Origin: Escherichia coli
GTDB taxonomy: Bacteria; Pseudomonadota; Gammaproteobacteria; Enterobacterales; Enterobacteriaceae
Length of the DNA stretch: 64,000 nucleotides
NCBI RefSeq assembly: GCF_016903815.1
Contig: NZ_CP069973.1
Strand: one strand, 5' to 3'
The position numbers and the translations under genes were made by a program. Shown here one piece after another: positions 8,679-38,162 of the stretch. Positions within the stretch are counted from its first letter, which is position 1; each line of letters starts with the position of its first letter. The notes below the pieces were generated by a model. It ran no database searches. It was given only the letters and a program-made list of their open reading frames with translations, and was not told where the DNA came from.

Positions 8679-8888
8679 GTTTTCTCCTGCACCACTAAAT
8701 TTTTGTTGGTGGTAGTCCAGTAAAAATGGATGTAGTTATCTAAGACAGCGCATAGATTGTGCCTGCCTAACCCTAAAAAGTGTAATTATGAAAAGTAACG
8801 CTAGAAATTCTATACCGTTCGCAAAGAGAACACTTTTCAAAGATATATCATCATCTTGAACATGTCACTATAATGGTGAATCCATAAG

Positions 8889-18128: not shown

Positions 18129-18884
18129 ATGTTAATGGCGCAGCAGTTATCTTTCAGATTATTAAGGGGAAACAAGAGTATGGCAAGATGTACAGCTCCT
18201 GTACGTGGACATAGCTCAGCAGCAGCTGCTGCTGCCTGTCCCGCATGTCGTAATCGCAGTGGTTATCGCCGCAGTAGCTACAGTTATGATAGTTACCCTT
18301 CTTACTCATCAGGCTCTAGCGGTGGCGGAAGTTATGGAGGCAGTAGCGGTGGTTCCAGCAGCAGCGCGAAGCCACGTTGGTCAAAATCAGGGTCTTCCGT
18401 TTCTTACACAACAGCCCAAGTACAATCACTCACACCAATTCGACAAGCGGTAGAGAAACTTGCCATTGAGCAACCTGATCTGCGTGATGTCTTTCTTTGC
18501 CATGCTTGGGATGACCGACAAGGTATTGCCAAAGAGTTACACGATTTGCTCGAAGCGGCAGGTGTCAAAGTATGGTTCAGCGAAAAGGATCTTGCCCTTG
18601 GTGTTCCGATGATGCGTGCCATTGATAAAGGATTAGCAAACTCTCGAATCGGCTTGGTTTTAGTGACACCTGCATTGTTAAACCGTCTTCCTAAAGAAGG
18701 CGTTGCTGATAAAGAACTTTCCGCCTTACTGGCAGGCAACCAACTCGTTCCCATCGTGCATAACACGACGTATGAAGCTCTCCGTAATGTCAGTCCTTTG
18801 CTTGCATCCCGAAGCGGCCTCGACACGGGAGAAGATACATTGGCAGTTGTTGCAACAAAAATTGCAGAGCTGATCACTGTTTAG
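18129..18884 (+). CDS. TIR-domain protein with Ser/Gly/Tyr-rich low-complexity N-terminal region
   Basis: C-terminal ~140 aa DVFLCHAWDDRQGIAKELHDLLEAAGVKVWFSEKDLALGVPMMRAIDKGLANSRIGLVLVTPALL fits the TIR pattern; start codon uncertain (18129, 18135 or 18180). Confidence 0.75.
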   Translation: MLMAQQLSFRLLRGNKSMARCTAPVRGHSSAAAAAACPACRNRSGYRRSSYSYDSYPSYSSGSSGGGSYGGSSGGSSSSAKPRWSKSGSSVSYTTAQVQSLTPIRQAVEKLAIEQPDLRDVFLCHAWDDRQGIAKELHDLLEAAGVKVWFSEKDLALGVPMMRAIDKGLANSRIGLVLVTPALLNRLPKEGVADKELSALLAGNQLVPIVHNTTYEALRNVSPLLASRSGLDTGEDTLAVVATKIAELITV

Positions 18885-19307
18885 TTTATCCAAGCCACCG
18901 TTAAATATTTCCAGCTCATGAATCTGGTCTGCTATTGCAGGCCAGATATCAGTCAATACTGAAAGGTTTGACCTGCTCCCCGTTGATTAACATAGACTGA
19001 TATAGCAACTTCCGCTTTTGGCACAAAGCAGACCATGAGAAGATAGACGCTATAACATTTGAGTCCTACCAATCGATCTGTTCATTTCCATAAATGGCAG
19101 TAAATGCAAATAACCAGAACAGCCAGGCGCTTTTCGACTTATGGTCGATGTTGCAAAGAGTGAGGAGTGGAAAGCAAGCGTGCGAACGAAAGTAGATGGC
19201 AATCCATTGCATTACTTCAGGACGACTTTTCAGAAAGCGAGCTAAGGGCGTCAGCCAACGCCCTTACCGTGGCATAAGCTCAGGCACCGGATGCCGTTTT
19301 ACAGGGC

Positions 19308-20039
19308 TCACCTGCCATCCAGTAAACGCCCCGGCCCACGACTGCAACCATAATTACGTTGACCAGAACCGTCATGCTGCTTCGTCTCATACTTCACGAG
19401 ATAACAGGCTCTCTCCATGGCTTTCTGCATCGCTTCCACATCACCACGCTTGACCCAGAGCACAGCGGATCCACCAGATTTTTTGTCAGAAGCTTTCCGG
19501 GTATCAGAACATCCACCCGACAAAGGCGTATCATCGGAAGAAGGGCGAGCATCAGATGATGCCGGTTTACGGAAAGGCGTCCGCCTGGAAAAATGAACCA
19601 GTCCATTACCCTGCCAGGGTTCAAGATGCAGAGCGCTACACCATGCCAGCTTGATCAGCGTCGCCAGCGAAGAAGGAACGGTGAAATCCCCTAGCGAGCA
19701 CCAGGTATCTTTGTTGAGCAGTAATATCACGTGATAATGTTTCCTGCCTTTTTCCTTGCCAAACTCCCGACACCAGAAATAACGCAGAGTGGTTGCACGC
19801 ACACGCTTGTTGGCACGTCGTTTATGTCGCTGGTAAGCCTGAATTTTTGCTTTCAGGGATTCGAAAAAACGAGAAATCACCGCTGAATCCGAATCGGGAT
19901 CCATGATGGTGACAGGCATATACTCAGGGAAACGTAAATCCATCCGGATTAACGAGACGACACGGTGTTGCGCCAGGGCACTGTTGAGAATACTTTCAAA
20001 ACGGGATAACCAGTAAGCATTGTGTATTGGTTGATTCAT
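19308..20039 (-). CDS. YagK/YfjJ-family (inovirus Gp2-like) protein, paralog
   Basis: 243-aa ORF MNQPIHNAYWLSRFESILNSALAQHRVVSLIRMDLRFPEY... parallel to the two other paralogs. Confidence 0.6.
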   Translation of the reverse strand: MNQPIHNAYWLSRFESILNSALAQHRVVSLIRMDLRFPEYMPVTIMDPDSDSAVISRFFESLKAKIQAYQRHKRRANKRVRATTLRYFWCREFGKEKGRKHYHVILLLNKDTWCSLGDFTVPSSLATLIKLAWCSALHLEPWQGNGLVHFSRRTPFRKPASSDARPSSDDTPLSGGCSDTRKASDKKSGGSAVLWVKRGDVEAMQKAMERACYLVKYETKQHDGSGQRNYGCSRGPGRLLDGR

Positions 20040-21682
20040 GATGAGAGATCTCCGTTGATTTGGATTGACTTCACATCATTAATCACCGCGGTAAAACTTT
20101 ACGGCATCCCGCCATTGAGCAACGCCAATGGCTCCTGATTAAAACAGAATGAATCCCCCACGAAGAAAAAATAAACCTACACGCAGAGTAAAACACACAA
20201 CAACGGCATAAATGGTTTTTAAAAACTACAAAGCCTGAAGGGAAACGGATCCACAGAACGTGCAAACAAAACACCAAAAACGCAATCAGAACGCTTTCTG
20301 CTGCTGTGAATCAACAACAATACCAAAACCTACAGCTTAACCACAAAACTCAATCACAGAGCCGAATAGCGTGTTTAAAACCTGTTTACAGATAACCCTG
20401 CCACAAGAACAAAGTTCACCAATATCAGAATCGATTTTCTCATCCTGAAAATGTTACGTTTCACTACACAGCATAAAAACGATTAACTATTGATAACGTA
20501 AACCTCATCTGAATCAAAACACCAGAACCAATCATCACGCTTTTCCTGAAAAGAGCCTTGCGCTGAGAAAAAACACCAGGGTCAGTTAATCATCTCATCA
20601 ATCTCATCGTTACAAAAACATCCATAAAACCATTTAACAAAATCATCGTAAGCACACAGTAAATCACGCCAGGTTATCTCAGCCAAATTTTCGTTTTACA
20701 TAAAGACACTTGTCTCAGGTTAACGACTAAAAACACAAAAACTCAGAAAAGGTTAAACGTAACTTCAGAAAAATAGAATATCATATTGATTGCTTAAACA
20801 GGAAAGATTGTTTTGTAGTAGCATTAAGCTGATTTTAGTTAACGTAAAAACAGGACTGACAGGTTTACTAAACTGGATGTGTATCAGACAAAGCAATGTG
20901 TATAACAATACTTAATGAAAACACTTGTAGAATTGTTTATGAAAATACGTGTATGTCTGGTAAAACACTTAGTAGAAAATACGTGTATAACACTTACTGA
21001 AATGCTTAGTAAAAATACTTAGTAAAATATGTGTAGAATTATCTATTTAAAAAGATATGTATATAACACTTAATAAAAACATGTGTATATAGTATCATAC
21101 CGACATTCTCAACATCTTCAGACTTCCATACATACTGGGTGTTGATTTCTCACTTTTACAGCCAGCATGGAGTTTTCTGTCCTAAAAACAGAGCAGATTT
21201 ACTCTGGAATTATTTTTCTACCCCCGTATTTCAGGCCCCAGAAAAGACAATCCGAAGCAAACCGTTTGTCAGCCTCCATATCATCTTTTACCCCCGGAAA
21301 GTGATCGCGTTTACAACCAGAATGACAGCCATACTGATTATGTCGTCTCCCGGCCCCCTTCACATATAACATGCATGTCTGTCATTGCTTACTGCTCCAC
21401 ATGACCGGATTTCACATACAGGATGCACATTCAGTGTTTTTATCGCTACTATAACAGACAGATTACTGTCGTCTTTACTCTTCAGATTGTTAATCTGACC
21501 ACAAGAACAGCCGAACGGCAAAACGCCCTCCACAAGGGGCACATGAACCATAGTTGATAGCATGTTTTTCCTAATCAAGGAATAGTTCAGGAATATTTTA
21601 TTGCATTAATAACTGGCGAATAATCGTTCTGTGAACACAAAATGCTTTTATTTGTAAATTTTATTGCATTGCACTCGTTTTA

Positions 21683-22522
21683 TTGATATGGGGTTTAATA
21701 ACAGATAACCCGGAAAGAAGGAGAAAACAGATGACATTACGGATTAACGATCAGGGGCGAGATAAACAGAATCAATTTTTATCGAAAAATGGAGAAAATC
21801 TGAATTCGTTAAAATCGCGTCATGTGCAGGATAGGCATTTACCTGAATGGCTTAAGGATAAAGTTGCAGCATTCTGGTTTTGTCTGGTGATAAAGGATAT
21901 GAAAGTGTCAGGGAGCAGTTACTATGAACTTACCATGCAACTTCCCACTTCTGAAGAATCTGTTTGCATCAGTAAGCTGTCATCCTCAACCCATGAGATT
22001 CGGCTGGAGATCATCAGGCGATGGATTGATAGTGTAGCGCAGATAGAAACGGAAGCTTTTACTAAAAATCTCGTTGATGCCATCTATAAAAACTGGAAGG
22101 AAATCGGGAACAAAAACCAGGCCACATGGCTTAAAAAAAATCCGGAACAACTCGAGTGGGCATGGAAATATATTAACATTCGTATTCCCGAGTCACATTT
22201 AACCTGGTTTTGCCCCGTCAATAACGAAGAGAAACGCATTGCCATCTTAGCATTGCTTAAAATACTGTATCCCGGAGATATACCATGCCAGTACAACGAC
22301 AAAGAGTTTCATGTCGGGATCTGCGCTGAAGAACATTTTTACAGAAGAATGCACGACGCTTTCAGAAAACAGTTTATCGACGGGAAAAAAGATAAACGGG
22401 TACAAATTAACGTAAAGATATCACCGTCCGCAAAAAGCGCTCTGGACAGACTGACCAGAGCGAGGAAAACAACACAGCAGGCTATTCTGGAACAACTGAT
22501 TCTGAACGGTAGACTGGATTAA
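21683..22522 (+). CDS. Hypothetical protein (no recognisable domain; possible ribbon-helix-helix-like C-terminus)
   Basis: 279-aa ORF; likely true start at MTLRINDQ (21731); function unknown. Confidence 0.5.
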   Translation: MIWGLITDNPERRRKQMTLRINDQGRDKQNQFLSKNGENLNSLKSRHVQDRHLPEWLKDKVAAFWFCLVIKDMKVSGSSYYELTMQLPTSEESVCISKLSSSTHEIRLEIIRRWIDSVAQIETEAFTKNLVDAIYKNWKEIGNKNQATWLKKNPEQLEWAWKYINIRIPESHLTWFCPVNNEEKRIAILALLKILYPGDIPCQYNDKEFHVGICAEEHFYRRMHDAFRKQFIDGKKDKRVQINVKISPSAKSALDRLTRARKTTQQAILEQLILNGRLD

Positions 22523-23520
22523 CTTTCACTACTTCCACTCCTGGCAGTTTTCCTCTTTTTGTAGTGTCTCCCGGCTGCAGGCATCAGGTACTTTTCCGTC
22601 ATTTCGTTGCAGAACTCTTCAATGTAGTTAATCAGCTTCTGGTGTGCTTTCACCTTTTCTTCCCCGGGGGACGCTTTCAGATAAATGTCCTCCTTTTCCA
22701 CAAGTGTATTTATAAACTCTCCCGGACATCCCTGGTTATAAAGCAACGTGAAAAACAACACATTCCCCAGTCTCTCCAGTAACTGCGATTTAACCCTGTA
22801 TTGTTGTTTGCTGAGGATTGATTGTTTTATAAAGCTTAGTCTTGTTAAAAGTTGTTCAAATCCCGGTTCCAGTTTAAAAACAGATTTTAATACCAGGGAC
22901 TGATACTCCTGATAAAAAAGTTCAAACGTCGGGGATGCAGACTGACGAACAGATTTGGCTACAACCCATGGACTAAATCCCATGATTGGGATTTCCTTCG
23001 CTCCCTCCAGCGCACTCAGAGGTAGTCCAGCAATCCATGCGTCCAGCTTAGCCGAATCAATATCCCCGCTCAAAACCTCATACAAACTGCCCGTGAACGG
23101 TTGAGTCGGTTTTTTTGTTGTTTTACCTTCTGATTGCCTGAATCCATCCACTTTTCTCCGGATATTACGCGGAATCAGCATAAAAGGCGGGACATTAAGT
23201 GATAAACGTTTACCCGTCATACGATACCAGTGGCCCACCTCAACCTTAATCCGTGTATCTGGCCTTGTATCTGGCCTTGTATCTGGCCTTAGCTCAAGTG
23301 CTATTATGTTAAGCAGGTACAGATAACGCACCGTATAACAGTCAAAATGTTTCTCCGGATCAAACGGCTCTGATCGTTCTCTGCACACAAGTCCGCTGCG
23401 CTTCAGTATTCGCTGGGTATCTTTCCAGGCCTTACTCTGAAGAATGGTGGTAACTCTGGCTTTATTAGCAATCTCACGCAGCGCATCACTTTGTTGTGCC
23501 GTCATCTCTTCCCTCCACAC
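22519..23520 (-). CDS. Hypothetical protein containing in-frame tandem repeat (RPDT)x3, divergent from GTPase gene
   Basis: 333-aa ORF; 12-bp tandem repeat at ~23255-23292; function unknown. Confidence 0.55.
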   Translation of the reverse strand: MWREEMTAQQSDALREIANKARVTTILQSKAWKDTQRILKRSGLVCRERSEPFDPEKHFDCYTVRYLYLLNIIALELRPDTRPDTRPDTRIKVEVGHWYRMTGKRLSLNVPPFMLIPRNIRRKVDGFRQSEGKTTKKPTQPFTGSLYEVLSGDIDSAKLDAWIAGLPLSALEGAKEIPIMGFSPWVVAKSVRQSASPTFELFYQEYQSLVLKSVFKLEPGFEQLLTRLSFIKQSILSKQQYRVKSQLLERLGNVLFFTLLYNQGCPGEFINTLVEKEDIYLKASPGEEKVKAHQKLINYIEEFCNEMTEKYLMPAAGRHYKKRKTARSGSSES

Positions 23521-23611
23521 TTTGTCACTCCAGATTTTTTCACGTCCATATTACCTGAATGATAAACCGGATTAGTGTGATCCGGTTCAGCGAAATCAAC
23601 AGGATACCGGT

Positions 23612-24496
23612 ATGTCATTCAGCCATTCTTCCCTCTCTGCACAAGTGAAATCATATCTGACGTTTCTTCCTGAAGAAATTCGCCAGAAAATCCTTGAACA
23701 TCTCCACGGTGTTATTCATTACGAGCCCGTGATTGGCATTATGGGTAAATCCGGCACAGGCAAAAGCAGCCTGTGTAATGCCATTTTTCAGTCCCGTATC
23801 TGCGCCACGCATCCCCTGAACGGCTGCACCCGCCAGGCTCATCGTCTTACCCTGCAGCTCGGTGAACGCAGAATGACGCTGGTCGATCTGCCCGGCATTG
23901 GTGAAACACCGCAGCATGATCAGGAATACCGGACACTTTATCGTCAGCTGCTACCGGAACTGGATCTGATTATCTGGATCCTACGGGCTGATGAACGTGC
24001 GTATGCTGCCGATATTGCCATGCATCAGTTTTTACTGAATGAAGGTGCAGATCCCTCGCGTTTTCTGTTTGTTCTCAGCCATGCCGATCGCGTGTTTCCT
24101 GCTGAAGAATGGAACGACACAGAAAAATGCCCGTCCCGTCAGCAGGCGCTCTCACTGGCGACGGTGACAGCCCGGGTGGCAACCCTGTTCCCTTCATCAT
24201 TTCCGGTACTCTCCGTTGCTGCACCTGTCGGCTGGAACCTTCCGGCGTTTGTGTCGCTGATGATCCACGCACTGCCACCACAGGCAACCAGCGCGGTGTA
24301 TTCACATATCCGGGGAGAAAACCGCTCTGAACAGGCCCAGAAACACGCACAACAGACTTTTGGTGACGCCATCGGGAAAAGCTTTGACGCTGCCGTTGTC
24401 CGGTTCAGTTTTCCGGCCTGGATGTTACAGCTTCTCCGTAAAGCCCGGGACCGCATTATCCACCTGCTGGTCACACTGTGGGATCGTCTGTTCTGA
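23612..24496 (+). CDS. YeeP/YkfA-family GTPase (cryptic-prophage type)
   Basis: 294-aa ORF with P-loop GIMGKSGTGKSS and G-domain motif DLPG. Confidence 0.8.
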   Translation: MSFSHSSLSAQVKSYLTFLPEEIRQKILEHLHGVIHYEPVIGIMGKSGTGKSSLCNAIFQSRICATHPLNGCTRQAHRLTLQLGERRMTLVDLPGIGETPQHDQEYRTLYRQLLPELDLIIWILRADERAYAADIAMHQFLLNEGADPSRFLFVLSHADRVFPAEEWNDTEKCPSRQQALSLATVTARVATLFPSSFPVLSVAAPVGWNLPAFVSLMIHALPPQATSAVYSHIRGENRSEQAQKHAQQTFGDAIGKSFDAAVVRFSFPAWMLQLLRKARDRIIHLLVTLWDRLF

Positions 24497-24614
24497 GCGC
24501 CCCGGAGTCCCCCGTGGCAACCGTATACCTTTACACGACAACGGATTACGGTAACCACTGCCGTATACCGTCTGTCATTATCAATAACACGCTCTTTAAT
24601 TTCAGAGGTCAGTC

Positions 24615-25292
24615 ATGAATACCAGAATTCTTTTTCCCCTGCTGTTCACTGTGGCATCCTTCTCCGCCTCCGCCGGCAACTGGGCTGTCAAAAACGGCTG
24701 GTGTCAGACCATGACGGAAGATGGTCAGGCACTGGTAATGCTGAAAAATGGCACGATTGGTATTACCGGCCTGATGCAGGAATGCCCGAATGGCGTACAG
24801 ACGCTCCTGGGCAGCCGTATCAGTATTAACGGTAACCTGATCCCCACATCACAAATGTGTAATCAGCAGACGGGATTCAGGGCTGTTGAGGTGGAAGTCG
24901 GACAGGCGCCGGAAATGGTCAAAAAAGCCGTTCACTCCATAGCAGAGCGTGATGTGTCCGTTTTACAGGCATTTGGTGTACGAATGGAATTCACCCGCGG
25001 TGATATGCTGAAGGTCTGTCCGAAATTTGTCACATCACTTGCCGGTTTTTCCCCGAAACAGACACCCGCCATTAATAAAGATTCCGTCCTGCAGGCTGCC
25101 CGGCAGGCATACGCCCGGGAATATGACGAGGAAACAACAGAAACCGCTGATTTTGGCTCTTACGAAGTAAAAGGCAATAAGGTTGAGTTTGAAGTGTTCA
25201 ATCCTGAAGACCGTGCGTACGACAAAGTGACCGTCACGGTTGGTGCTGACGGTAATGCCACCGGTGCCAGCGTTGAATTTATCGGAAAATAG
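24615..25292 (+). CDS. Secreted hypothetical protein (signal peptide)
   Basis: 225-aa ORF with N-terminal signal peptide [20 protein letters not shown]; no recognised domain. Confidence 0.5.
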
Positions 25293-25297
25293 CCGGT

Positions 25298-25531
25298 ATG
25301 TCGGACTGTCACCCTGTTTTATTGCCCGAAGGCCCTTTCTCACGCGAACAGGCGGTTGCCGTCACAACAGCTTACCGCAATGTGCTTATTGAAGATGACC
25401 AGGGAACGCATTTCCGGCTGGTTATCCGTAATGCTGAAGGTCAGTTGCGCTGGCGATACTGGAATTTTGAACCTGATGCCGGAAAACAGCTAAATCCGCA
25501 TCTCGCCAGTGAGGGAATTCTCAGGCAATAA
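25298..25531 (+). CDS. DUF905-family small protein
   Basis: 77-aa ORF in the position that DUF905 occupies in CP4-type islands. Confidence 0.5.
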
Positions 25532-25620
25532 ACGTCTTCATTTCATCCATCAGGCCGCGTCTTCTCCGGGAGACGCGGCCTTTTCATTTATACCGCTAAC
25601 TCATTCATAAGGAGCAAAGT

Positions 25621-26439
25621 ATGCAATTAGCCAGTCGTTTTGGTCATGTAAATCAGATCCGTCGGGAGCGCCCACTGACACGCGAAGAACTGATGTACCA
25701 CGTCCCGAGTATTTTTGGAGAAGACCGGCACACCTCCCGCAGTGAACGGTATGCGTACATTCCCACCATCACCGTCCTGGAAAATCTGCAGCGGGAAGGC
25801 TTTCAGCCGTTCTTCGCCTGCCAGACCCGTGTGCGCGACCAGAGCCGTCGGGAATATACCAAACACATGCTGCGTCTGCGGCGGAGCGGACAGATAACCG
25901 GCCAGCATGTGCCTGAAATTATTCTGCTCAACTCCCATGACGGTTCATCCAGCTACCAGATGTTACCCGGATATTTTCGTGCCATCTGCACCAATGGCCT
26001 GGTCTGCGGTCAGTCGCTGGGAGAAGTCCGGGTGCCACACCGGGGAAACGTGGTGGACAGGGTGATTGAAGGTGCTTACGAAGTGGTGGGCGTTTTTGAC
26101 CGGATTGAGGAAAAGCGTGATGCCATGCAGTCGCTGCTCTTACCGCCACCGGCACGTCAGGCACTGGCTCAGGCGGCACTGACTTACCGTTATGGTGACG
26201 AACATCAGCCCGTCACCACTGCCGACATTCTGACACCACGACGCCGGGAGGATTACGGTAAGGACCTGTGGAGTGCTTATCAGACCATCCAGGAGAATAT
26301 GCTGAAAGGCGGGATTTCCGGCCGCAGTGCAAAAGGAAAACGTATCCATACCCGGGCCATTCACAACATCGACACCGACATTAAGCTCAATCGCGCATTG
26401 TGGGTGATGGCGGAAACGCTGCTGGAGAACCTGCGCTGA
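25621..26439 (+). CDS. DUF932-family protein (YafZ-like)
   Basis: 272-aa ORF; size and position match yafZ-type genes of E. coli cryptic prophages. Confidence 0.6.
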   Translation: MQLASRFGHVNQIRRERPLTREELMYHVPSIFGEDRHTSRSERYAYIPTITVLENLQREGFQPFFACQTRVRDQSRREYTKHMLRLRRSGQITGQHVPEIILLNSHDGSSSYQMLPGYFRAICTNGLVCGQSLGEVRVPHRGNVVDRVIEGAYEVVGVFDRIEEKRDAMQSLLLPPPARQALAQAALTYRYGDEHQPVTTADILTPRRREDYGKDLWSAYQTIQENMLKGGISGRSAKGKRIHTRAIHNIDTDIKLNRALWVMAETLLENLR

Positions 26440-26491
26440 TGCCGTTTACCTGAATCACGTCTGTCCCTGCCCCCGAGCCTTCTTCATTCAT

Positions 26492-27001
26492 TTGCTTTTT
26501 ATAAGGAATAATATCATGACAACCTCTTCGCATAATTCCACCACACCTTCTGTTTCCGTAACTACTGCATCAGGGAATAACCAGTCTCAACTGGTTGCCA
26601 CTCCCGTCCCTGATGAACAGCGCATCAGCTTCTGGCCGCAGCACTTTGGCCTCATTCCACAGTGGGTGACCCTGGAGCCCCGCGTCTTCGGCTGGATGGA
26701 CCGTCTGTGCGAAGACTACTGCGGTGGTATCTGGAATCTGTACACCCTGAACAACGGCGGGGCATTTATGGCACCCGAACCGGATGACGATGATGACGAA
26801 ACATGGGTACTGTTCAATGCCATGAACGGTAACCGCGCTGAAATGAGCCCGGAAGCTGCCGGTATTGCCGCCTGTCTGATGACGTACAGTCATCATGCCT
26901 GTCGTACGGAGTGTTATGCCATGACGGTCCATTATTACCGGCTGCGGGATTACGCCCTGCAGCATCCGGAATGCAGCGCCATTATGCGCATCATCGACTG
27001 A
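26492..27001 (+). CDS. Antirestriction protein (KlcA/ArdB family, YfjX/YafX-like)
   Basis: 169-aa ORF (probable start MTTSSHNS at 26516); characteristic acidic stretch PEPDDDDDETW. Confidence 0.7.
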   Translation: MLFIRNNIMTTSSHNSTTPSVSVTTASGNNQSQLVATPVPDEQRISFWPQHFGLIPQWVTLEPRVFGWMDRLCEDYCGGIWNLYTLNNGGAFMAPEPDDDDDETWVLFNAMNGNRAEMSPEAAGIAACLMTYSHHACRTECYAMTVHYYRLRDYALQHPECSAIMRIID

Positions 27002-27493
27002 ATGGAGGCAGGGACAATGCAGCAGCTTTCCTTTCTGCCCGGAGAAATGACGCCCGGCGAGCGCAGTCTCATTCTGCGGGCTCTGAAAACCCTGGACCGC
27101 CATCTTCATGAACCCGGTGTGGCCTTCACCTCCACCCGTGCGGCACGGGAATGGCTGATTCTGAACATGGCGGGACTGGAGCGTGAAGAGTTCCGGGTGC
27201 TGTATCTGAATAACCAGAATCAGCTGATTGCCGGTGAAACCCTCTTCACCGGCACCATCAACCGCACGGAAGTCCATCCCCGGGAAGTGATTAAACGCGC
27301 CCTGTATCACAATGCCGCTGCCGTGGTGCTGGCACACAATCACCCGTCAGGTGAAGTCACACCCAGCAAGGCAGACCGCCTTATTACGGAACGTCTGGTA
27401 CAGGCACTGGCCCTGGTGGATATCCGGGTGCCGGACCATCTGATAATCGGTGGCAGCCAGGTTTTCTCCTTTGCGGAACACGGTCTGCTTTAA
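27002..27493 (+). CDS. RadC-like JAB-domain protein (YeeS/YkfG-like)
   Basis: 163-aa ORF with JAMM-like motif VVLAHNHPSGEVTPSKADRLIT. Confidence 0.8.
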   Translation: MEAGTMQQLSFLPGEMTPGERSLILRALKTLDRHLHEPGVAFTSTRAAREWLILNMAGLEREEFRVLYLNNQNQLIAGETLFTGTINRTEVHPREVIKRALYHNAAAVVLAHNHPSGEVTPSKADRLITERLVQALALVDIRVPDHLIIGGSQVFSFAEHGLL

Positions 27494-27561
27494 CCCGTCA
27501 CCGTCACAACCACATCACACCTGTTTTCACTTTTATCTTCTGTCTTCAGAGGTATCACACT

Positions 27562-27783
27562 ATGAAAATCATCACCCGTGGTGAAGCCATGCGTATTCAC
27601 CGTCAGCATCCTGCATCCCGTCTTTTTCCGTTCTGTACCGGCAAATACCGCTGGCATGGTGGCACTGAAGCGTATACCGGTCGTGAAGTGCAGGATATTC
27701 CCGGTGTGCTGGCTGTATTTGCAGAACGCCGTAAGGACAGTTTTGGCCCGTATGTCCGGCTGATGAGTGTCACCCTGAACTGA
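27562..27783 (+). CDS. DUF987-family protein (YeeT/YkfH-like)
   Basis: 73-aa ORF MKIITRGEAMRIHRQHPASRLFPFCTGKYRWHG..., near-identical to my recollection of YeeT. Confidence 0.8.
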   Translation: MKIITRGEAMRIHRQHPASRLFPFCTGKYRWHGGTEAYTGREVQDIPGVLAVFAERRKDSFGPYVRLMSVTLN

Positions 27784-27945
27784 TGTTCCGTCACCCGGGA
27801 AACGAGTACGACCAGATGACCTCAGACGCCGCTGTGGATGAGGCCATTCTCATCAACGAATACACCTTCACCGAAACCGGTCAGCGCGCCGGCTGACCTG
27901 TCATCATTAAACCATTCTTAACCACTTTTCAGAGAGGATTTTATC

Positions 27946-28314
27946 GTGTCAGACAAACTCTCCGGGATAACTCATCCCGACGACAATCACGACCGCCCCT
28001 GGTGGGGGCTTCCCTGCACAGTGAGGCCCTGTTTTGGCGCTCGTCTGGTGCAGGAGGGTAACCGCCTGCATTACCTTGCCGACCGCGCCGGTATCAGAGG
28101 CCGCTTCAGCGACGCAGATGCATACCATCTGGACCAGGCCTTTCCGCTGCTGATGAAACAACTGGAACTCATGCTCACCAGCGGTGAACTGAATCCCCGA
28201 CATCAGCATACCGTCACGCTGTATGCGAAAGGGCTGACCTGCGAAGCCGACACCCTCGGCTCCTGTGGTTACGTTTATCTGGCTGTTTATCCGACGCCCG
28301 AAACGAAAAAGTAA
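27946..28314 (+). CDS. cbeA: Type IV antitoxin CbeA (YeeU/YagB family)
   Basis: 122-aa ORF immediately upstream of cbtA; matches my recollection of YeeU-family antitoxins. Confidence 0.8.
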   Translation: MSDKLSGITHPDDNHDRPWWGLPCTVRPCFGARLVQEGNRLHYLADRAGIRGRFSDADAYHLDQAFPLLMKQLELMLTSGELNPRHQHTVTLYAKGLTCEADTLGSCGYVYLAVYPTPETKK

Positions 28315-28403
28315 ACCACCGGAATAACCTTCTGCTCCGGCCTGGTGCTTTCACCACGCCACTTTTCCATTTTTCATCTCTGCATATCAGGAAAACCTTC
28401 AGT

Positions 28404-28781
28404 ATGAAAACATTACCCGATACACACGTACGGGAGGCATCGAGCTGCCCGTCTCCCGTCACCATCTGGCAGACTCTGCTCTCCCGACTACTGGGCCAGC
28501 ATTACGGCCTTACACTGAATGACACACCGTTCGCCGATGAACGTGTGATTGAGCAGCATATTGAAGCTGGCATTTCACTGTGTGATGCGGTGAATTTTCT
28601 CGTGGAAAAATACGCGCTGGTGCGTACCGACCAGCCGGGATTCAGCACTTGTCCCCGCTCTCAGTTAATAAACAGTATTGATATCCTCCGGGCTCGCCGG
28701 GCGACCGGCCTGATGACCCGCGACAACTACAGAACGGTAAATAACATTACCCTGGGTAAACATCCGGGGGCGAAACAATGA
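28404..28781 (+). CDS. cbtA: Type IV toxin CbtA (YeeV family, cytoskeleton-targeting)
   Basis: 125-aa ORF MKTLPDTHVREASSCPSPVTIWQTLLSRLL..., YeeV-family pattern. Confidence 0.8.
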   Translation: MKTLPDTHVREASSCPSPVTIWQTLLSRLLGQHYGLTLNDTPFADERVIEQHIEAGISLCDAVNFLVEKYALVRTDQPGFSTCPRSQLINSIDILRARRATGLMTRDNYRTVNNITLGKHPGAKQ

Positions 28782-29200
28782 AACTGGCCCTGACGCTGGA
28801 AGCCGACAGCATTAATGCGCAGGCGCTGAACATGGGGCGCATTGTCGTTGACGTCGATGGTATTAAGCTCGCTGAACTGATTAACAAAGTCGCTGAAAAC
28901 GGTTATTCACTCCGCGTGGTGGATGAACATGACGCTACCGAAACACCGGCGACTTCTGCCAGCCCTCATCAGTTGCCGGAAGACAATACAGTGATACAGA
29001 GCGTGATGCCATTAACCACTGAAACAGCGCTGGATATCCTCATTGCGTGGCTGCAGGACAATATTGACTGCGAATCGGAAATTATCTTTGACAACGATGA
29101 GGACAAAACGGATTCGGCAGCACTGTTGCCCTGTATTGAACAGGCCAGGGAGGATATCCGTACCCTGCGCCAACTGCAGCTTCTGTACCAGAACCGGTGA
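28778..29200 (+). CDS. YeeW-like protein (DUF5983)
   Basis: 140-aa ORF overlapping the cbtA stop, as in yeeV-yeeW. Confidence 0.6.
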   Translation: MKLALTLEADSINAQALNMGRIVVDVDGIKLAELINKVAENGYSLRVVDEHDATETPATSASPHQLPEDNTVIQSVMPLTTETALDILIAWLQDNIDCESEIIFDNDEDKTDSAALLPCIEQAREDIRTLRQLQLLYQNR

Positions 29201-29284
29201 GTCTTACTCACCAGACTTCATTCCACTGACGCCAGCCTGAACAGGGCAGGCGTTTTCATTTATCTGCAAAAAGGAATATCGATT

Positions 29285-30127
29285 ATGTCTGAAATCACAG
29301 CCCCCCGTCCGGAAGTGGTCAACGGGCATACGGACGTTATCTGCTCAACCAGTATCCGCCACATTCTGGCTGTACGAAAGAGTACACTGCTGCAAATCGA
29401 CACACTTATCCGGCAACTGGCTGAAATATCAGCAATGACAGAAAGTATTGGCGGTAAAGCCGCCCCGGGCTGGGCCATGAAACAGGATTTTCGCTACGGC
29501 TGCTGGCTGATGGAGAAACCGGAAACCGCAATGAAAGCCATCACACGCAATCTCGATCGCGAAATCTGGCGTGACCTGATGCAACGTTCAGGGATGCTTT
29601 CCTTAATGGATGCACAGGCCCGTGATACATGGTACCGGTCACTGGAGTACGATAATTTTCCGGAAATCAGTGAAGCGAACATTCTGATCACATTTGAACA
29701 ACTACACCAGAATAAGGATGAGGTGTTTGAGCGAGGGGTGATCAACGTCTTCAGGGGACTGAGCTGGAATTACAAAACCAATTGCCCCTGCAAATTTGGC
29801 AGTAAAATTATCGTCAACAACCTGGTGAGGTGGGACCGGTGGGGGTTTCATCTTATCACCGGGCAACAGACTGACCGACTCGTCGACCTGGAAAGAATGC
29901 TACATCTGTTCAGCGGCAAACCGATCCCCGACAACCGGGAAAACATCACTATTCGTCTGGATGGTCACATCCAGTCCGTTCAGGGTAAAGAGCGCTATGA
30001 AGACGAGATGTTCATCATTAAATACTTTAAGAAGGGATCTGCACACATCACTTTCAAAAGGCTGGAACTGATTGACAGAATTAACGATATAATAGCCAAG
30101 TACTTTCCTTCTGTGCTCTCAGCCTGA
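29285..30127 (+). CDS. DUF4942-domain protein
   Basis: 280-aa ORF; last gene before the pheV 3'-end repeat, the usual position of DUF4942 genes. Confidence 0.6.
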   Translation: MSEITAPRPEVVNGHTDVICSTSIRHILAVRKSTLLQIDTLIRQLAEISAMTESIGGKAAPGWAMKQDFRYGCWLMEKPETAMKAITRNLDREIWRDLMQRSGMLSLMDAQARDTWYRSLEYDNFPEISEANILITFEQLHQNKDEVFERGVINVFRGLSWNYKTNCPCKFGSKIIVNNLVRWDRWGFHLITGQQTDRLVDLERMLHLFSGKPIPDNRENITIRLDGHIQSVQGKERYEDEMFIIKYFKKGSAHITFKRLELIDRINDIIAKYFPSVLSA

Positions 30128-30237
30128 TCCCGAGTGTGATTCCCTTTCGATATCAAAAGGGACTGCGGGTATAATTGAGGGTACATTTTTAATCAAACCA
30201 AATAAATTATATTAATATCAATATGATAAAAGAAATT

Positions 30238-30259
30238 TTCGATTCCGAGTCCGGCACCA
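30238..30259 (+). repeat. Partial tRNA-Phe 3' end (TTCGATTCCGAGTCCGGCACCA), island-boundary att-type direct repeat
   Basis: Matches the 3' end of E. coli tRNA-Phe (GGTTCGATTCCGAGTCCGGGCACCA) with one G missing; no complete tRNA upstream. Confidence 0.75.
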
Positions 30260-30274
30260 CTAATTCTTAAGAAC

Positions 30275-30296
30275 CCGCCCACAAGGCGGGTTTTTG
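30275..30296 (+). terminator. Rho-independent terminator hairpin (CCCGCC-ACAA-GGCGGG + T-run) downstream of the tRNA remnant
   Basis: Perfect 6-bp stem, 4-nt loop, TTTTT; seen directly. Confidence 0.7.
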
Positions 30297-30429
30297 CTTT
30301 TGGATCTTTATATAAAATAAACTTGGGAGCATAACGCCATCAGGTCTTAAACACTCCCGAATCATCAATAAACATCCCCCGTTAACAAAACACAGTTCAG
30401 TTCACATAACATCCCTGTTATCCCACACA

Positions 30430-30649
30430 TATCTGCTGGCCGAACGACGCCAGTGCGCGTACGGAGGCAAGAGCAGCCCTGCACATGGCAGCGCTTGTGG
30501 TAACCTGGTTTAATCCGGTGATAAAGGCGTTTTACATGCATCTGCCAGCAGCCGGAAAAACCAAAAAAGTGGCGCTGGTTGACTGTATGCGTAAATTGCT
30601 GACCATCCTGAACGCAATGCTCAGAAAAAACGAAGAGTGAAATGAATCG
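30430..30649 (+). pseudogene. IS110-family transposase C-terminal remnant
   Basis: Translation ...AALVVTWFNPVIKAFYMHLPAAGKTKKVALVDCMRKLLTILNAMLRKNEE* matches the conserved IS110-family C-terminus; no upstream catalytic domain. Confidence 0.6.
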
Positions 30650-30659
30650 TAGCATCATG

Positions 30660-31450
30660 TTGCTCCATAATTTTTACGTTCAAGACAGTTGATTATCGGC
30701 GCATATGACTCAAAAAGAGCCTGATGATTGCCTCTTTTCCATAGGCTCTTTCTCTGAAGTGAAGGAAGGCCCGGAAGAAAGCACTCGCTGGCATACGTGA
30801 CTCCAGCTCAACCGGAGATAATCACCATTGTTATTTTTCTATTTAATAATAATCTCCTGAAAAATAGATATAGCAAAAATACAATCCGGCCAGATTTAAT
30901 TCCGCATTCATTACCAGAAATAATCAACACCACAACTATCATATCATTCAATAGTCACCGCTAAAATTTTATTATTTTCCTCTTCTTTACATGGAAATTG
31001 TCAACCTGTTTATTATGCCGCACTTAAATAGTTAATCACAAAACAACATCACCATTATTTGCGTGTTTTATTTATTAATAACATAGTCATACGTTCTTTT
31101 TTTACAAGGAAATAATCAATTGATAAATTGTTTTTGGTCTTAATAGTCAAGTAGGAAACATTTTAATAAATGATAAAAATCCTAAATTCCTTGTTCATAA
31201 TGTAGGGGTGTGTTAAATAGGTGGGCAAAATTTGGTTCCCCTTCTCGCCTGTAATATTGCAGCATCTTCGCACCTCCATGAGACATTGCGACTTAATAAG
31301 AAGGTGATAAGTCCTGCATATAAGCATGGACTGACCATGGTTTTATATTCATTAAAAATTTTGTTACAACCCATTGATTTAGCATAAATAAATTATAGTG
31401 GGTTCGGGTTAGTTGTGACTGTGGCATTATTTCCGTGCAAAGGAGCTGAT
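30660..31450 (+). promoter_or_regulatory. AT-rich kps region 1 promoter/leader region upstream of kpsF
   Basis: ~790 bp AT-rich non-coding DNA upstream of kpsF; exact promoter elements not resolved. Confidence 0.35.
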
Positions 31451-32434
31451 ATGTCTGAAAGACATTTACCTGATGACCAGAGCAGTACTATCGATCCATA
31501 TCTAATTACCTCTGTTCGCCAGACTCTGGCAGAACAAGGCGCAGCATTACAAAACTTGTCTAAACAACTGGATTCCGGGCAGTACCAGCGTGTCCTTAAT
31601 TTGATAATGAACTGTAAAGGTCACGTTATTCTTTCGGGAATGGGTAAATCAGGGCATGTCGGTCGTAAAATGTCAGCGACGCTGGCCTCTACGGGTACGC
31701 CTAGTTTCTTTATTCATCCTGCAGAAGCTTTCCATGGCGATCTGGGCATGATTACGCCTTACGATCTTCTGATCCTTATTTCTGCCAGCGGTGAAACGGA
31801 TGAAATCCTCAAGCTAGTTCCTTCACTGAAAAATTTCGGCAACCGAATTATCGCCATTACCAATAATGGAAATTCCACGCTGGCGAAAAATGCTGATGCC
31901 GTGCTGGAACTCCACATGGCGAATGAAACCTGCCCGAATAATCTTGCACCAACAACGTCTACCACGCTGACGATGGCGATCGGCGATGCGCTGGCGATTG
32001 CCATGATCCACCAACGCAAATTTATGCCGAATGATTTTGCGCGCTATCACCCGGGCGGTTCATTAGGTCGTCGCCTGCTGACCCGCGTTGCTGATGTCAT
32101 GCAGCATGATGTTCCTGCGGTACAGCTGGATGCGTCATTTAAAACCGTGATTCAACGTATCACCAGCGGATGCCAGGGAATGGTGATGGTAGAAGACGCA
32201 GAAGGTGGGCTAGCGGGCATTATCACCGACGGTGACCTGCGTCGCTTTATGGAAAAAGAGGATTCTCTGACATCCGCCACGGCTGCGCAGATGATGACAC
32301 GTGAACCGCTGACGCTACCGGAAGACACCATGATCATTGAAGCGGAAGAAAAAATGCAAAAGCACCGCGTCTCAACGTTATTGGTGACCAACAAGGCAAA
32401 TAAAGTCACTGGCCTTGTGCGCATTTTCGACTAA
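31451..32434 (+). CDS. kpsF: Arabinose-5-phosphate isomerase KpsF (SIS + CBS domains)
   Basis: Starts MSERHLPDDQ...; SIS motif GMGKSGHVGRK; first gene of kps region 1. Confidence 0.9.
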   Translation: MSERHLPDDQSSTIDPYLITSVRQTLAEQGAALQNLSKQLDSGQYQRVLNLIMNCKGHVILSGMGKSGHVGRKMSATLASTGTPSFFIHPAEAFHGDLGMITPYDLLILISASGETDEILKLVPSLKNFGNRIIAITNNGNSTLAKNADAVLELHMANETCPNNLAPTTSTTLTMAIGDALAIAMIHQRKFMPNDFARYHPGGSLGRRLLTRVADVMQHDVPAVQLDASFKTVIQRITSGCQGMVMVEDAEGGLAGIITDGDLRRFMEKEDSLTSATAAQMMTREPLTLPEDTMIIEAEEKMQKHRVSTLLVTNKANKVTGLVRIFD

Positions 32435-32505
32435 TTAAGCAACGGGGTGCGAGAGGTTAGTCTCTCATTGAGTTTGCGCCCCACTGAAACTTTGATAATC
32501 GTTAC

Positions 32506-33654
32506 ATGTTGATAAAAGTGAAGTCTGCCGTATCCTGGATGCGTGCTCGTCTGTCTGCCATCTCACTGGCAGATATCCAAAAACACCTGGCGAAAATCAT
32601 CATTCTGGCACCGATGGCGGTGCTGCTGATCTATCTGGCTATCTTCAGCCAGCCTCGCTATATGAGCGAGTCGAAAGTCGCCATTAAACGCTCGGATGAT
32701 TTAAACAGCGGCAGCCTGAATTTTGGTCTGCTTCTGGGTGCCTCTAACCCCAGTTCCGCAGAAGATGCGTTGTATCTGAAAGAGTACATCAACTCGCCGG
32801 ATATGCTGGCGGCGCTGGATAAGCAACTAAATTTTCGTGAAGCGTTTAGCCACAGCGGGCTCGATTTTCTTAATCATCTTAGCAAGGATGAAACCGCAGA
32901 AGGCTTCCTGAAGTACTACAAGGACCGTATCAACGTCTCGTATGACGATAAAACCGGATTACTGAATATTCAGACGCAGGGCTTTAGCCCGGAATTTGCG
33001 CTTAAGTTTAACCAGACCGTGCTGAAAGAGTCAGAGCGCTTTATCAATGAGATGTCACATCGCATCGCGCGTGACCAGCTTGCCTTTGCAGAAACGGAGA
33101 TGGAAAAGGCACGCCAGCGTCTGGACGCCAGCAAAGCGGAATTGCTCTCTTATCAAGACAACAACAACGTTCTGGATCCACAGGCACAGGCACAGGCGGC
33201 GAGCACGTTAGTGAATACGCTGATGGGCCAGAAGATCCAGATGGAAGCGGATCTGCGTAACTTGCTGACGTATCTGCGTGAGGACGCCCCGCAAGTAGTG
33301 AGTGCGCGTAATGCGATTCAGTCATTGCAGGCACAAATCGATGAAGAACAAAGCAAAATCACAGCGCCGCAGGGTGACAAGCTAAACCGTATGGCGGTGG
33401 ATTTTGAAGAAATCAAATCAAAAGTAGAGTTCAACACCGAGCTGTACAAACTGACCCTGACCTCCATTGAAAAGACCCGTGTAGAAGCGGCTCGTAAGCT
33501 CAAGGTGCTGTCAGTGATCAGTTCGCCACAGTTGCCGCAGGAATCGTCTTTTCCAAATATCCCTTATTTGATCGCCTGCTGGTTACTGGTGTGCTGCCTG
33601 CTGTTCGGCACCCTGAAACTGTTGCTGGCTGTTATTGAAGATCACCGAGACTAA
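32506..33654 (+). CDS. kpsE: Capsule export inner-membrane protein KpsE
   Basis: 382-aa ORF with coiled-coil and terminal transmembrane segments; region 1 position. Confidence 0.9.
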   Translation: MLIKVKSAVSWMRARLSAISLADIQKHLAKIIILAPMAVLLIYLAIFSQPRYMSESKVAIKRSDDLNSGSLNFGLLLGASNPSSAEDALYLKEYINSPDMLAALDKQLNFREAFSHSGLDFLNHLSKDETAEGFLKYYKDRINVSYDDKTGLLNIQTQGFSPEFALKFNQTVLKESERFINEMSHRIARDQLAFAETEMEKARQRLDASKAELLSYQDNNNVLDPQAQAQAASTLVNTLMGQKIQMEADLRNLLTYLREDAPQVVSARNAIQSLQAQIDEEQSKITAPQGDKLNRMAVDFEEIKSKVEFNTELYKLTLTSIEKTRVEAARKLKVLSVISSPQLPQESSFPNIPYLIACWLLVCCLLFGTLKLLLAVIEDHRD

Positions 33655-33674
33655 CGCTGTCGCTGAATGAGTTT

Positions 33675-35354
33675 GTGATGAAATTATTTAAATCAATTTT
33701 ACTGATTGCCGCCTGTCACGCGGCGCAGGCCAGCGCGGCCATTGATATTAACGCTGACCCAAACCTTACAGGAGCCGCGCCGCTTACCGGTATTCTGAAC
33801 GGGCAACAGTCGGATACGCAAAACATGAGCGGCTTCGACAATACCCCGCCGCCCGCACCGCCGGTGGTAATGAGCCGTATGTTTGGTGCTCAACTTTTCA
33901 ACGGCACCAGCGCGGATAGCGGTGCGACGGTAGGATTCAACCCTGACTATATTCTGAATCCGGGTGATAGCATTCAGGTTCGCTTGTGGGGTGCGTTCAC
34001 CTTTGATGGTGCGTTACAGGTTGATCCCAAAGGTAATATTTTCCTGCCGAACGTTGGTCCGGTGAAAGTTGCTGGCGTCAGTAATAGTCAGCTAAATGCC
34101 CTGGTCACATCCAAAGTGAAGGAAGTATACCAGTCCAACGTCAACGTCTACGCCTCCTTATTACAGGCGCAGCCAGTAAAAGTGTACGTGACCGGATTTG
34201 TGCGTAATCCTGGTCTGTATGGCGGTGTGACGTCTGATTCGTTACTCAATTATCTGATCAAGGCTGGCGGCGTTGATCCAGAGCGCGGAAGTTACGTTGA
34301 TATTGTGGTCAAGCGCGGTAACCGCGTGCGCTCCAACGTCAACCTGTACGACTTCCTGCTGAACGGCAAACTGGGGCTTTCGCAGTTCGCCGATGGTGAC
34401 ACCATCATCGTCGGGCCGCGTCAGCATACTTTCAGCGTTCAGGGCGATGTCTTTAACAGCTACGACTTTGAGTTCCGCGAAAGCAGCATTCCCGTAACGG
34501 AAGCTTTGAGCTGGGCGCGCCCTAAGCCTGGCGCGACTCACATTACGATTATGCGTAAACAGGGGCTACAAAAACGCAGCGAATACTATCCGATCAGTTC
34601 TGCGCCAGGCCGTATGTTGCAAAATGGCGATACCTTAATCGTGAGCACTGACCGCTATGCCGGCACCATTCAGGTGCGGGTTGAAGGCGCACACTCCGGT
34701 GAACATGCCATGGTACTGCCTTATGGTTCCACTATGCGTGCGGTTCTGGAAAAAGTCCGCCCGAACAGCATGTCGCAGATGAACGCGGTTCAGCTTTATC
34801 GCCCATCAGTGGCTCAGCGTCAGAAAGAGATGCTGAATCTCTCGCTGCAAAAGCTGGAGGAAGCCTCACTTTCTGCCCAGTCATCCACCAAAGAAGAAGC
34901 CAGCCTGCGAATGCAGGAAGCACAACTGATCAGCCGCTTTGTGGCGAAAGCACGCACCGTGGTTCCGAAAGGTGAAGTGATCCTCAACGAATCCAATATT
35001 GATTCTGTTCTGCTTGAAGATGGCGACGTCATCAATATTCCGGAGAAAACATCGCTGGTTATGGTTCATGGCGAAGTGCTGTTCCCGAACGCGGTGAGCT
35101 GGCAGAAGGGTATGACCACCGAGGATTACATCGAGAAATGTGGTGGCCTGACGCAAAAATCGGGTAACGCCAGAATTATCGTCATTCGTCAGAACGGTGC
35201 TGCCGTCAACGCGGAAGACGTGGATTCACTCAAGCCGGGCGATGAGATTATGGTTCTACCGAAATATGAATCGAAAAATATTGAAGTTACCCGTGGTATT
35301 TCCACCATCCTCTATCAGCTGGCGGTGGGTGCAAAAGTGATTCTGTCTTTGTAA
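33675..35354 (+). CDS. kpsD: Capsule export periplasmic/outer-membrane protein KpsD
   Basis: 559-aa ORF with signal peptide; region 1 position. Confidence 0.9.
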   Translation: MMKLFKSILLIAACHAAQASAAIDINADPNLTGAAPLTGILNGQQSDTQNMSGFDNTPPPAPPVVMSRMFGAQLFNGTSADSGATVGFNPDYILNPGDSIQVRLWGAFTFDGALQVDPKGNIFLPNVGPVKVAGVSNSQLNALVTSKVKEVYQSNVNVYASLLQAQPVKVYVTGFVRNPGLYGGVTSDSLLNYLIKAGGVDPERGSYVDIVVKRGNRVRSNVNLYDFLLNGKLGLSQFADGDTIIVGPRQHTFSVQGDVFNSYDFEFRESSIPVTEALSWARPKPGATHITIMRKQGLQKRSEYYPISSAPGRMLQNGDTLIVSTDRYAGTIQVRVEGAHSGEHAMVLPYGSTMRAVLEKVRPNSMSQMNAVQLYRPSVAQRQKEMLNLSLQKLEEASLSAQSSTKEEASLRMQEAQLISRFVAKARTVVPKGEVILNESNIDSVLLEDGDVINIPEKTSLVMVHGEVLFPNAVSWQKGMTTEDYIEKCGGLTQKSGNARIIVIRQNGAAVNAEDVDSLKPGDEIMVLPKYESKNIEVTRGISTILYQLAVGAKVILSL

Positions 35355-35363
35355 GGAGTTGAA

Positions 35364-38128: not shown

Positions 38129-38162
38129 ACAATTTCATGGTTGACTATTACGCAAATTATTT

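Follow-up and report, generated by a model that had tools for sequence, protein, structure and literature searches.

The protein of 225 amino acids (aa) encoded at positions 24615 to 25292 (+ strand) of a 64,000-nucleotide stretch of Escherichia coli DNA (assembly GCF_016903815.1, contig NZ_CP069973.1; the whole stretch is referred to as the window) represents a new, unnamed family with familiar features, those of a small exported accessory protein of CP4-type islands. It is strongly supported that the open reading frame (ORF) is a functional gene, and equally that its product defines a family confined to CP4-type integrative islands of the Enterobacterales. The anatomy of the protein, meaning the gene itself, export of the product and its division into domains, can be described with high confidence. 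The role proposed, tentatively and with a confidence well short of even, lies in the periplasm: the protein would bind an envelope-acting protein, or act on it in the way of an inhibitor, and neutralise or modulate it.

Gene, export signal and predicted domains

The gene and the parts of its product lie as follows.

24604 to 24609, + strand: Shine-Dalgarno-like AGAGGT, 5 nucleotides (nt) before the ATG, invariant across five E. coli alleles
24615 to 25292, + strand: complete gene for the exported 225-aa protein
24615 to 24674, + strand: predicted signal peptide, aa 1-20 (MNTR...SASA)
24675 to 25019, + strand: N-terminal beta-rich domain, aa 21-135, with W23, C30, C57, C82 and C135
25020 to 25076, + strand: variable linker, aa 136-154, as seen in alignments (50-200 aa in distant homologues)
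25077 to 25289, + strand: C-terminal cystatin/PepSY-like domain, aa 155-225

Completeness of the gene is indicated by the ORF listing, the sequence, the RefSeq record, homologues and purifying selection. The ORF comprises 225 codons from its ATG and ends with TAG, and the product is completely identical to WP_001097362.1, which in strain 222 bears the RefSeq label 'hypothetical protein'. The reading frame is closed by stop codons 5' of the ATG in the window, in a copy on a plasmid (L022) and in the orthologues from Klebsiella and Citrobacter, which makes 24615 the conserved start.

A first-pass annotation, made from the window's letters, had given the protein a clear Sec signal peptide, no lipobox and no recognisable domain, and all three statements hold. 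The signal-peptide call is a rule-based reading from hydropathy and the A-x-A rule: an n-region with one basic residue (R4) is followed by a 12-residue hydrophobic core (I5-F16, in the usual range of 10-15) and by an A-S-A site with small residues at -3 and -1, placing the predicted signal peptidase I (SPase I) cut after A20 and before G21 (SASA, then GNW). The hydropathy peak covers residues 3-16, and in the orthologues the corresponding residues are SAQA or SAEA followed by G. The best 19-aa Kyte-Doolittle windows all fall within residues 3-25, with no second hydrophobic segment elsewhere in the protein, and the lipobox pattern L-[AS]-[GA]-C is not found, the first Cys being residue 30. The call is strengthened by the family, which keeps an export signal throughout, either of the SPase I type or as a lipobox. 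Predicted export through Sec with SPase I cleavage after Ala20 is thus strongly supported, as is a mature protein that is soluble rather than a lipoprotein; its computed size is 205 aa (22.2 kDa, pI 5.0).

No model in Pfam, NCBIfam, PHROGs or PADLOC matches the protein, scans of distant homologues did not assign them to a family either, and sequence searches of the PDB, with the single protein and with a family profile, returned chance matches only, two of them at E about 1.4. Structure prediction, suggested as a check by the first-pass annotation, was more informative on architecture. A first AlphaFold2 model, built from 18 close sequences, had a mean predicted local distance difference test score (pLDDT) of 76.9, with residues 1-15 low; a second, of the mature protein with a curated 26-row alignment including distant relatives, reached 88.4, with no residue below 50, a dip to 72 in the linker and a predicted template modelling score of 0.61; that last value leaves it uncertain how the two domains are oriented to each other. 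The two-domain architecture seen in the models is strongly supported. In the N-terminal domain the model has some ten beta strands and a single long helix (99-111); in the C-terminal domain a helix (155-170) lies against an antiparallel sheet of four strands, which is the arrangement typical of PepSY and cystatin-like folds (a helix across four to five antiparallel strands). Fold comparisons of the C-terminal domain scored as follows.

Designed cystatin fold (4r80): 8.3
YpeB PepSY domain: 6.7
A cystatin (6i1m): 6.3
Fungalysin propeptide: 6.3
YpmB PepSY domain: 6.2
Vibriolysin propeptide: 5.6
Colicin M immunity protein: 5.5
Many NTF2/VirB8-like domains: 5-6

The fold resemblances are generic. 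In the models the PepSY/cystatin likeness is one of fold only, as is the resemblance to IalB considered below. Identity to YpeB, YpmB, the M4/M36 propeptides, cystatins and the colicin M immunity protein (Cmi) is 5-16%, the QxVxG loop motif of cystatins is absent, and Pfam PepSY (PF03413) does not match the 225-aa protein at E<=1; the best PepSY signal in the family, that of P0058 (E=0.03), lies below threshold at 15 bits against a cut-off of 24.

The wider family and its place in CP4-type islands

A profile search over 1.84 billion representative proteins gave 60 matches, fragments included, and a second profile search of a large protein set added almost nothing. Among these matches are distant relatives that measure 230-237 aa and a set of longer forms, of 271-491 aa, and all share the N-terminal domain. 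Across 27 diverse members, with identities down to 17%, only M1, W23, C30, C57, C82 and C135 never vary, and G66, N72 and G121 hardly do; the Cys pattern is unchanged out to 17-25% identity. The four invariant Cys suggest a periplasmic protein held together by disulfides, in which C30, C57, C82 and C135 probably form two disulfides. The same 27 members share no conserved set of catalytic-type residues (His, Asp, Glu, Ser), which argues for a binding or scaffold role, and a non-enzymatic protein is strongly supported as a reading of the alignment.

The long forms differ from the 225-aa form by linker insertions, where a low-complexity stretch carries an MGYxK..G.W.K.S motif, and in many cases by an extra third domain; they usually retain a C-terminal domain like that of the 225-aa protein. 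Eight of them (P0086, P0088, P0089, P0093, P0098, P0099, P0101 and P0106) have a lipobox (LTGC, LTAC or LSGC) instead of an SPase I signal, with Asp at +2 in seven. Asp at +2 of a lipoprotein is an inner-membrane retention signal in E. coli (Lol sorting). With SPase I signals in the 225-aa orthologues and lipoboxes in distant relatives, the type of signal switches as export persists, and the tethered relatives indicate periplasmic action at the inner membrane.

The third domain forms the C-terminal ~125 aa of its carriers (P0078, P0085, P0086, P0088, P0089, P0098, P0101 and P0106), is bracketed by Cys (CTLDNGK...YIRFNKG.YDYVLL...SHEC) and within the family occurs in long homologues only. It also stands alone in hypothetical proteins of 160-217 aa from Salmonella and E. 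coli; it has no Pfam or PDB match, and a set of 5.8 billion proteins yields only three hypothetical proteins. Separately, 53 weak matches of the C-terminal domain to P0068, a cadherin protein of 7945 aa, were judged a repeat artefact and set aside.

Of 5426 complete E. coli genomes, 1833 carry the ORF at 95-100% nucleotide identity. It is nearly always chromosomal and reaches five copies in some genomes, and human, animal, food and water isolates alike are among the carriers. Positions 24400-25600 of the window are 100% identical to strain 222, where the island adjoins insertion sequence elements, remnants of type VI secretion system genes and a kps capsule cluster, and to many other strains. 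Full-length orthologues of 225-229 aa (55-66% identity), all called hypothetical, occur in Klebsiella, Citrobacter, Enterobacter and Lelliottia; those of 225 aa are 61-66% identical and occupy an equivalent position in these genera. Thus about a third of complete E. coli genomes, and many genomes of Klebsiella, Citrobacter and Enterobacter, carry a gene whose sequence stands thousands of times in databases as a 'hypothetical protein', from a family with neither a name nor a domain model. Searches of the literature library that could be queried found no mention of WP_001097362 and nothing relevant on YeeP, DUF932 and DUF905 in combination.

Beyond chromosomes the gene is rare: 5 of 72,556 plasmid records carry it, one of which (CP125156.1) is, at 5.37 Mb, probably a mislabelled chromosome. 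Among 50,697 phage records there was no tblastn match to the 225-aa protein, and no PHROG matches it; a scan of IMG/VR with the close-orthologue alignment gave one locus. The sole family member seen in a non-island context is P0062 (230 aa), encoded at 8001-8693 of a 49-kb metagenomic contig (L009) that looks like a novel phage, with a dense one-directional array of small unannotated ORFs and an endolysin-like gene.

Selection on the gene was assessed as the ratio of nonsynonymous to synonymous divergence (dN/dS; Nei-Gojobori), where dS is near saturation between genera. Values are given for the 225-aa gene and then for the DUF932 gene of the same islands.

Window versus Klebsiella and Citrobacter: 0.12-0.13; 0.10-0.12
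Klebsiella versus Citrobacter: 0.06; 0.07
Among five E. coli alleles: 0.14-0.26; 0.08-0.16

The 225-aa gene is under purifying selection, and a signature of diversifying selection, sought between genera and within E. coli, was not found. Identity to the Klebsiella counterpart is 62% for the 225-aa protein, 52% for the GTPase and 72% for the DUF932 protein, and these comparisons strongly support co-divergence of the gene with the backbone of the island, slower than the GTPase gene and faster than DUF932. Between the E. coli islands (the window against L019-L021), dS is 0.01-0.09 in the 225-aa gene and 0.18-0.51 in the adjacent DUF932 gene; the lower value suggests recent recombinational spread between islands of a segment that includes the 225-aa gene.

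These data bear on whether the ORF is a decaying passenger without current function, as the lack of a known family or phenotype, the loss of a regulator gene in the window variant and a leader relic upstream of the gene might suggest. The dN/dS range of 0.06-0.26 already contradicts such decay, and so do the intact length in five genera, the invariance of the Cys pattern at great distance and a sample of 30 E. coli records across the identity range of 1841 genomes, 29 of them full-length 'hypothetical protein' entries and none flagged as a pseudogene; we regard decay as very improbable. The first-pass annotation had named homology to a larger, disrupted gene as the result that would overturn its view. 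No such homology emerged: the orthologues in five genera have the same ends and 225-229 aa, on which grounds a fragment of Ag43 or of another larger gene was rejected, and no remnant of the third domain of the long relatives lies 3' of the stop codon, where the DUF905 gene begins 5 nt later.

All chromosomal contexts recovered place the family member between the island GTPase gene and a DUF932 gene, in the same orientation. The full order is GTPase, an optional WYL regulator, the family member, optional DUF905 or DUF4234 genes, DUF932, antirestriction (at some loci), RadC, DUF987 and CbeA/CbtA, and it holds for the 225-aa members of Klebsiella and Citrobacter, the 336-aa members of Enterobacter and E. 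coli, and a 491-aa lipoprotein from a metagenome. At three E. coli loci (L019-L021, positions 2170-2853) a gene for a 226-aa WYL regulator with a helix-turn-helix domain stands between the GTPase gene and the 225-aa gene; its product is 43% identical to YfjR of K-12 and 50-58% identical to the regulators that precede the 336- and 491-aa forms. WYL genes also precede family members in L006 and L008. In four of five E. coli copies (the window and L019-L021) DUF905 begins 5 nt after the stop codon; the annotation of the plasmid copy L022 shows none, and it is lacking beside the Klebsiella and Citrobacter orthologues, where the WYL gene is absent as well.

The first-pass annotation had placed the protein in the slot directly after a YeeP-type GTPase gene. 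That is true of the window, where the gap is 118 nt (24497-24614), and fails as a rule: junction searches found the WYL-to-gene junction in 1603 genomes and the GTPase-to-gene junction of the window type in 397. The 225-aa gene abuts the GTPase gene in the window because the regulator gene has been lost, and no trace of it is left there.

Comparison with the equivalent slot in CP4-like islands, also proposed in the first-pass annotation, revealed a recurrent position with unrelated occupants in K-12. CP4-57 contains yfjP (GTPase), yfjQ (DUF932), yfjR (WYL), ypjK, yfjS (a lipoprotein with Asp at +2), yfjT (secreted), others and ypjI; CP4-6 contains ykfA, yafZ, ykfK, yafY, ykfB and ykfF (DUF905). 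By tblastn, ykfK (L002, 8783-8968) is what remains of a YfjR-type WYL gene (66% identity over 62 aa), and ypjI (L003, 14636-14793) is a DUF905 relic. Given these two relics, a cassette of WYL regulator, exported protein(s) and DUF905 recurs in CP4-6, CP4-57 and the window island, and in position the 225-aa protein corresponds to YpjK-YfjS-YfjT and YafY-YkfB. YfjT/YkfB and YfjS/YafY (PF20494) are likewise small exported proteins, Sec-secreted in one case and an inner-membrane lipoprotein with Asp at +2 in the other, encoded between a YfjR-type WYL gene and DUF905; they differ in that the cassette lies 5' of DUF932 in the window and 3' of it in K-12. The likeness stops at position. Homology to YkfB, YfjT, YafY, YfjS, YpjK, YfjR and YfjW was rejected (family-profile hmmsearch, E>0.2), Pfam YfjS_YafY (PF20494) does not match the 225-aa protein, and hhalign gave a relationship to YfjT a probability of 0.3%, with a single-sequence template that very remote homology could escape.

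What is gained is the definition of a family: exported, with a four-Cys N-terminal domain, a PepSY/cystatin-like C-terminal domain and a set position that has a YfjR-type regulator on one side and DUF905 on the other. The positional tie to the obscure K-12 genes yfjS/yfjT and yafY/ykfB provides one testable framework for several 'y-ome' exported proteins of cryptic islands. Taken alone, the family opens no long-standing question, and another hypothetical periplasmic island protein will not surprise specialists.

Candidate functions

Under the reading favoured here, the protein would be exported through Sec and cut by SPase I after Ala20, leaving a soluble mature protein in the periplasm that is probably stabilised as a fold with two disulfide bonds among its four invariant Cys. 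It would be retained there and act near the inner membrane as a non-enzymatic binder, its target most plausibly an envelope-acting hydrolase or protease that is bound and neutralised or modulated, much as PepSY propeptides, cystatins and the immunity or inhibitor proteins of the periplasm act on their targets; the cell that carries the island would profit. Within the cassette of YfjR-type WYL regulator, exported protein and DUF905, it would be the exported member. The inhibitor reading draws on the PepSY/cystatin-type C-terminal domain, on an alignment that shows no catalytic residues, and on a parallel with inhibitor and immunity proteins of the periplasm, which exist as both soluble and lipoprotein versions. 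Two points weigh against it: no linked toxin or hydrolase gene is present in any genomic context recovered, and the folds are generic. Confidence is held low on account of both.

A broader version would make the family the periplasmic arm of an unrecognised envelope module of CP4 islands, WYL-regulated and GTPase-coupled, that blunts phages, conjugative DNA or envelope toxins, with YpjK-YfjS-YfjT and YafY-YkfB as interchangeable alternatives; this we consider speculative and rather improbable.

Alternatively, the protein could be a component of envelope exclusion or defence, perhaps working with the dynamin-like GTPase under WYL control, that blocks entry of phage or foreign DNA or limits damage to the inner membrane, much as lipoproteins of superinfection exclusion or entry exclusion do. 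The island is mobile and carries defence-type cargo, with TIR, AbiGi, SymE and HNH/McrA genes in related loci; the distant homologues are lipoproteins of inner-membrane type, like many exclusion proteins; and CapW/BrxR-type WYL regulators commonly precede defence operons. Furthermore, the C-terminal third of the GTPase matches the PADLOC model LeoBC of the Eleos, dynamin-like defence system (E=1.6e-6), and Foldseek against viral models found the N-domain fold in three unnamed phage proteins of 141-152 aa (E=4e-5 to 1e-3). However, PADLOC-DB 2.0 has no match for the 225-aa protein or for its relatives P0067 and P0098, the GTPase occurs without the 225-aa gene in many islands, including CP4-6, CP4-57 and CP4-44 of K-12, the WYL gene is missing in the window and in Klebsiella and Citrobacter, and the diversifying selection sought was not detected, all of which makes a defence role unlikely.

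The first-pass annotation suggested an exported effector or surface factor, and a related possibility is a virulence or adhesion factor that is released, for example through a type II secretion system (T2SS), or displayed, and that acts on host cells or aggregates cells as Ag43 does. The setting is that of a pathogenicity island, beside kps capsule, T2SS-like and SslE-like genes, and in CP4-44 the adhesin gene flu (Ag43) directly follows yeeP, so that Ag43 too is an exported protein encoded next to an island GTPase gene. Ag43 is, however, an autotransporter of 1039 aa, and the 225-aa protein has no autotransporter or passenger domain; nor did the Pfam scan find any beta-barrel or repeat adhesin domain. 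The four-Cys N-terminal domain has a weak fold similarity to Bartonella invasion-associated protein B (IalB; PF06776/COG5342; 3dtd). Identity to IalB is 4-9%, Pfam PF06776 does not match, and the PDB profile search does not retrieve 3dtd; IalB is alphaproteobacterial, is not island-linked, and is itself reported to be an inner-membrane or periplasmic protein, with its mechanism not given in the IalB literature. The surface or effector suggestion finds no support: outer-membrane and secretion-system signals are absent, the four Cys are invariant, relatives are tethered through an inner-membrane-type lipobox with Asp at +2, and the gene is carried by a third of E. coli genomes, whatever their source, as well as in Klebsiella, Citrobacter and Enterobacter. 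We place a virulence or adhesion role among the distinctly improbable readings.

The cassette position raises a further candidate, a modulator of envelope physiology or biofilm that is analogous to YpjK, YfjS or YfjT and alters envelope stress signalling or the cell surface when its regulator is induced. The gene stands where YfjS/YfjT and YafY/YkfB stand, between a YfjR-type regulator and DUF905, and PMC8249747 counts YfjR among regulators with a single target, here its own operon, and lists that operon as biofilm-related. Set against this, chromatin immunoprecipitation with exonuclease digestion (ChIP-exo) detected no binding by YfjR and its proposed biofilm role is unvalidated (PMC8464067), and the 225-aa protein has no sequence relationship to YfjT, YkfB, YfjS or YafY; a modulator of this kind is as doubtful as a defence role.

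Transcription unit and neighbouring genes in the window

The features that surround the gene are listed in order.

23612 to 24496, + strand: YeeP/YfjP/YkfA-type GTPase gene (MMR_HSR1, E=7.5e-15; Dynamin_N, E=2.9e-10)
24478 to 24618, + strand: relic of an upstream leader peptide, out of frame here and in frame in WYL-type loci, reading MLNRKLNIRLRHSLNSHCIPSIIINN...
24575 to 24614, + strand: conserved 5' leader TCATTATCAATAAC...CAGAGGTCAGTC, from DNA alignment
25298 to 25531, + strand: DUF905 gene of the YkfF family (PF06006, E=4.2e-30)
25552 to 25591, + strand: intrinsic-terminator-like hairpin (25552-25581; stem of 13 bp with 9 G-C pairs) and T-rich tail, TTTCATTTAT
25621 to 26439, + strand: DUF932 gene of the YfjQ/YafZ family (PF06067, E=2.1e-49), where the conserved island backbone begins

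A promoter scan found no sigma-70-like promoter on the + strand upstream of the 225-aa gene, and no terminator-like site lies in 24497-24614; one weak stem of six pairs lies inside the GTPase gene (24231-24246). The GTPase gene is probably the source of read-through transcription into the 225-aa gene in the window variant. The 225-aa and DUF905 genes are probably co-transcribed, and closure of their transcription unit by the terminator-like hairpin after DUF905 is strongly supported. Judged by their domain matches, the YeeP/YfjP GTPases may be membrane-active dynamin-like proteins.

The conserved leader is common to the GTPase-direct and WYL-type arrangements. Conservation peaks in the last ~45 nt before the ATG, including the invariant TCATTATCAATAAC block, and further 5' it is patchy with large gaps. 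In WYL-type loci an in-frame upstream ATG (L020, 2896-3000) would add 35 aa (MLNRKLNIRLRHSLNSHCIPSIIINNTVRSFQRSV) to the protein, a stretch similar to the N-terminal ends of distant homologues of the lipoprotein type, for example P0093 (MLNKKLNMRVLRHSLMIASAISVLTGC). The leader relic may record a change of signal-peptide type during evolution of the family.

The backbone 3' of DUF932 consists of antirestriction, RadC, DUF987, CbeA/CbtA, DUF5983 and DUF4942 genes. An Rfam scan of 19000-31000 gave one sub-threshold chance match and no IsrC-like small RNA. Directly 5' of the GTPase gene are two convergent ORFs of 279 and 333 aa (21683-22522, +, and 22519-23520, -) whose 3' ends overlap by 4 nt; neither has a Pfam or PADLOC match, and a short tandem repeat of PDTR (RPDTRPDTRPDTR) occurs in the 333-aa protein. 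Further upstream, at 18129-18884 (+) and 19308-20039 (-), a gene for a TIR-domain protein (TIR_2, E=3.7e-15), which may be defence or virulence cargo of the island, adjoins a YagK/YfjJ-REP_ORF2/G2P-like gene. At the other end of the window lie the kps group-2 capsule cluster, putative T2SS ORFs and an SslE/YghJ-like M60 gene (31415-47000, 48394-58317, and 59784-63968, -). The T2SS identity is taken from ORF size and position and is relevant here only as a theoretical export route, and the M60 peptidase gene (Peptidase_M60, E=7e-37) continues past the end of the window.

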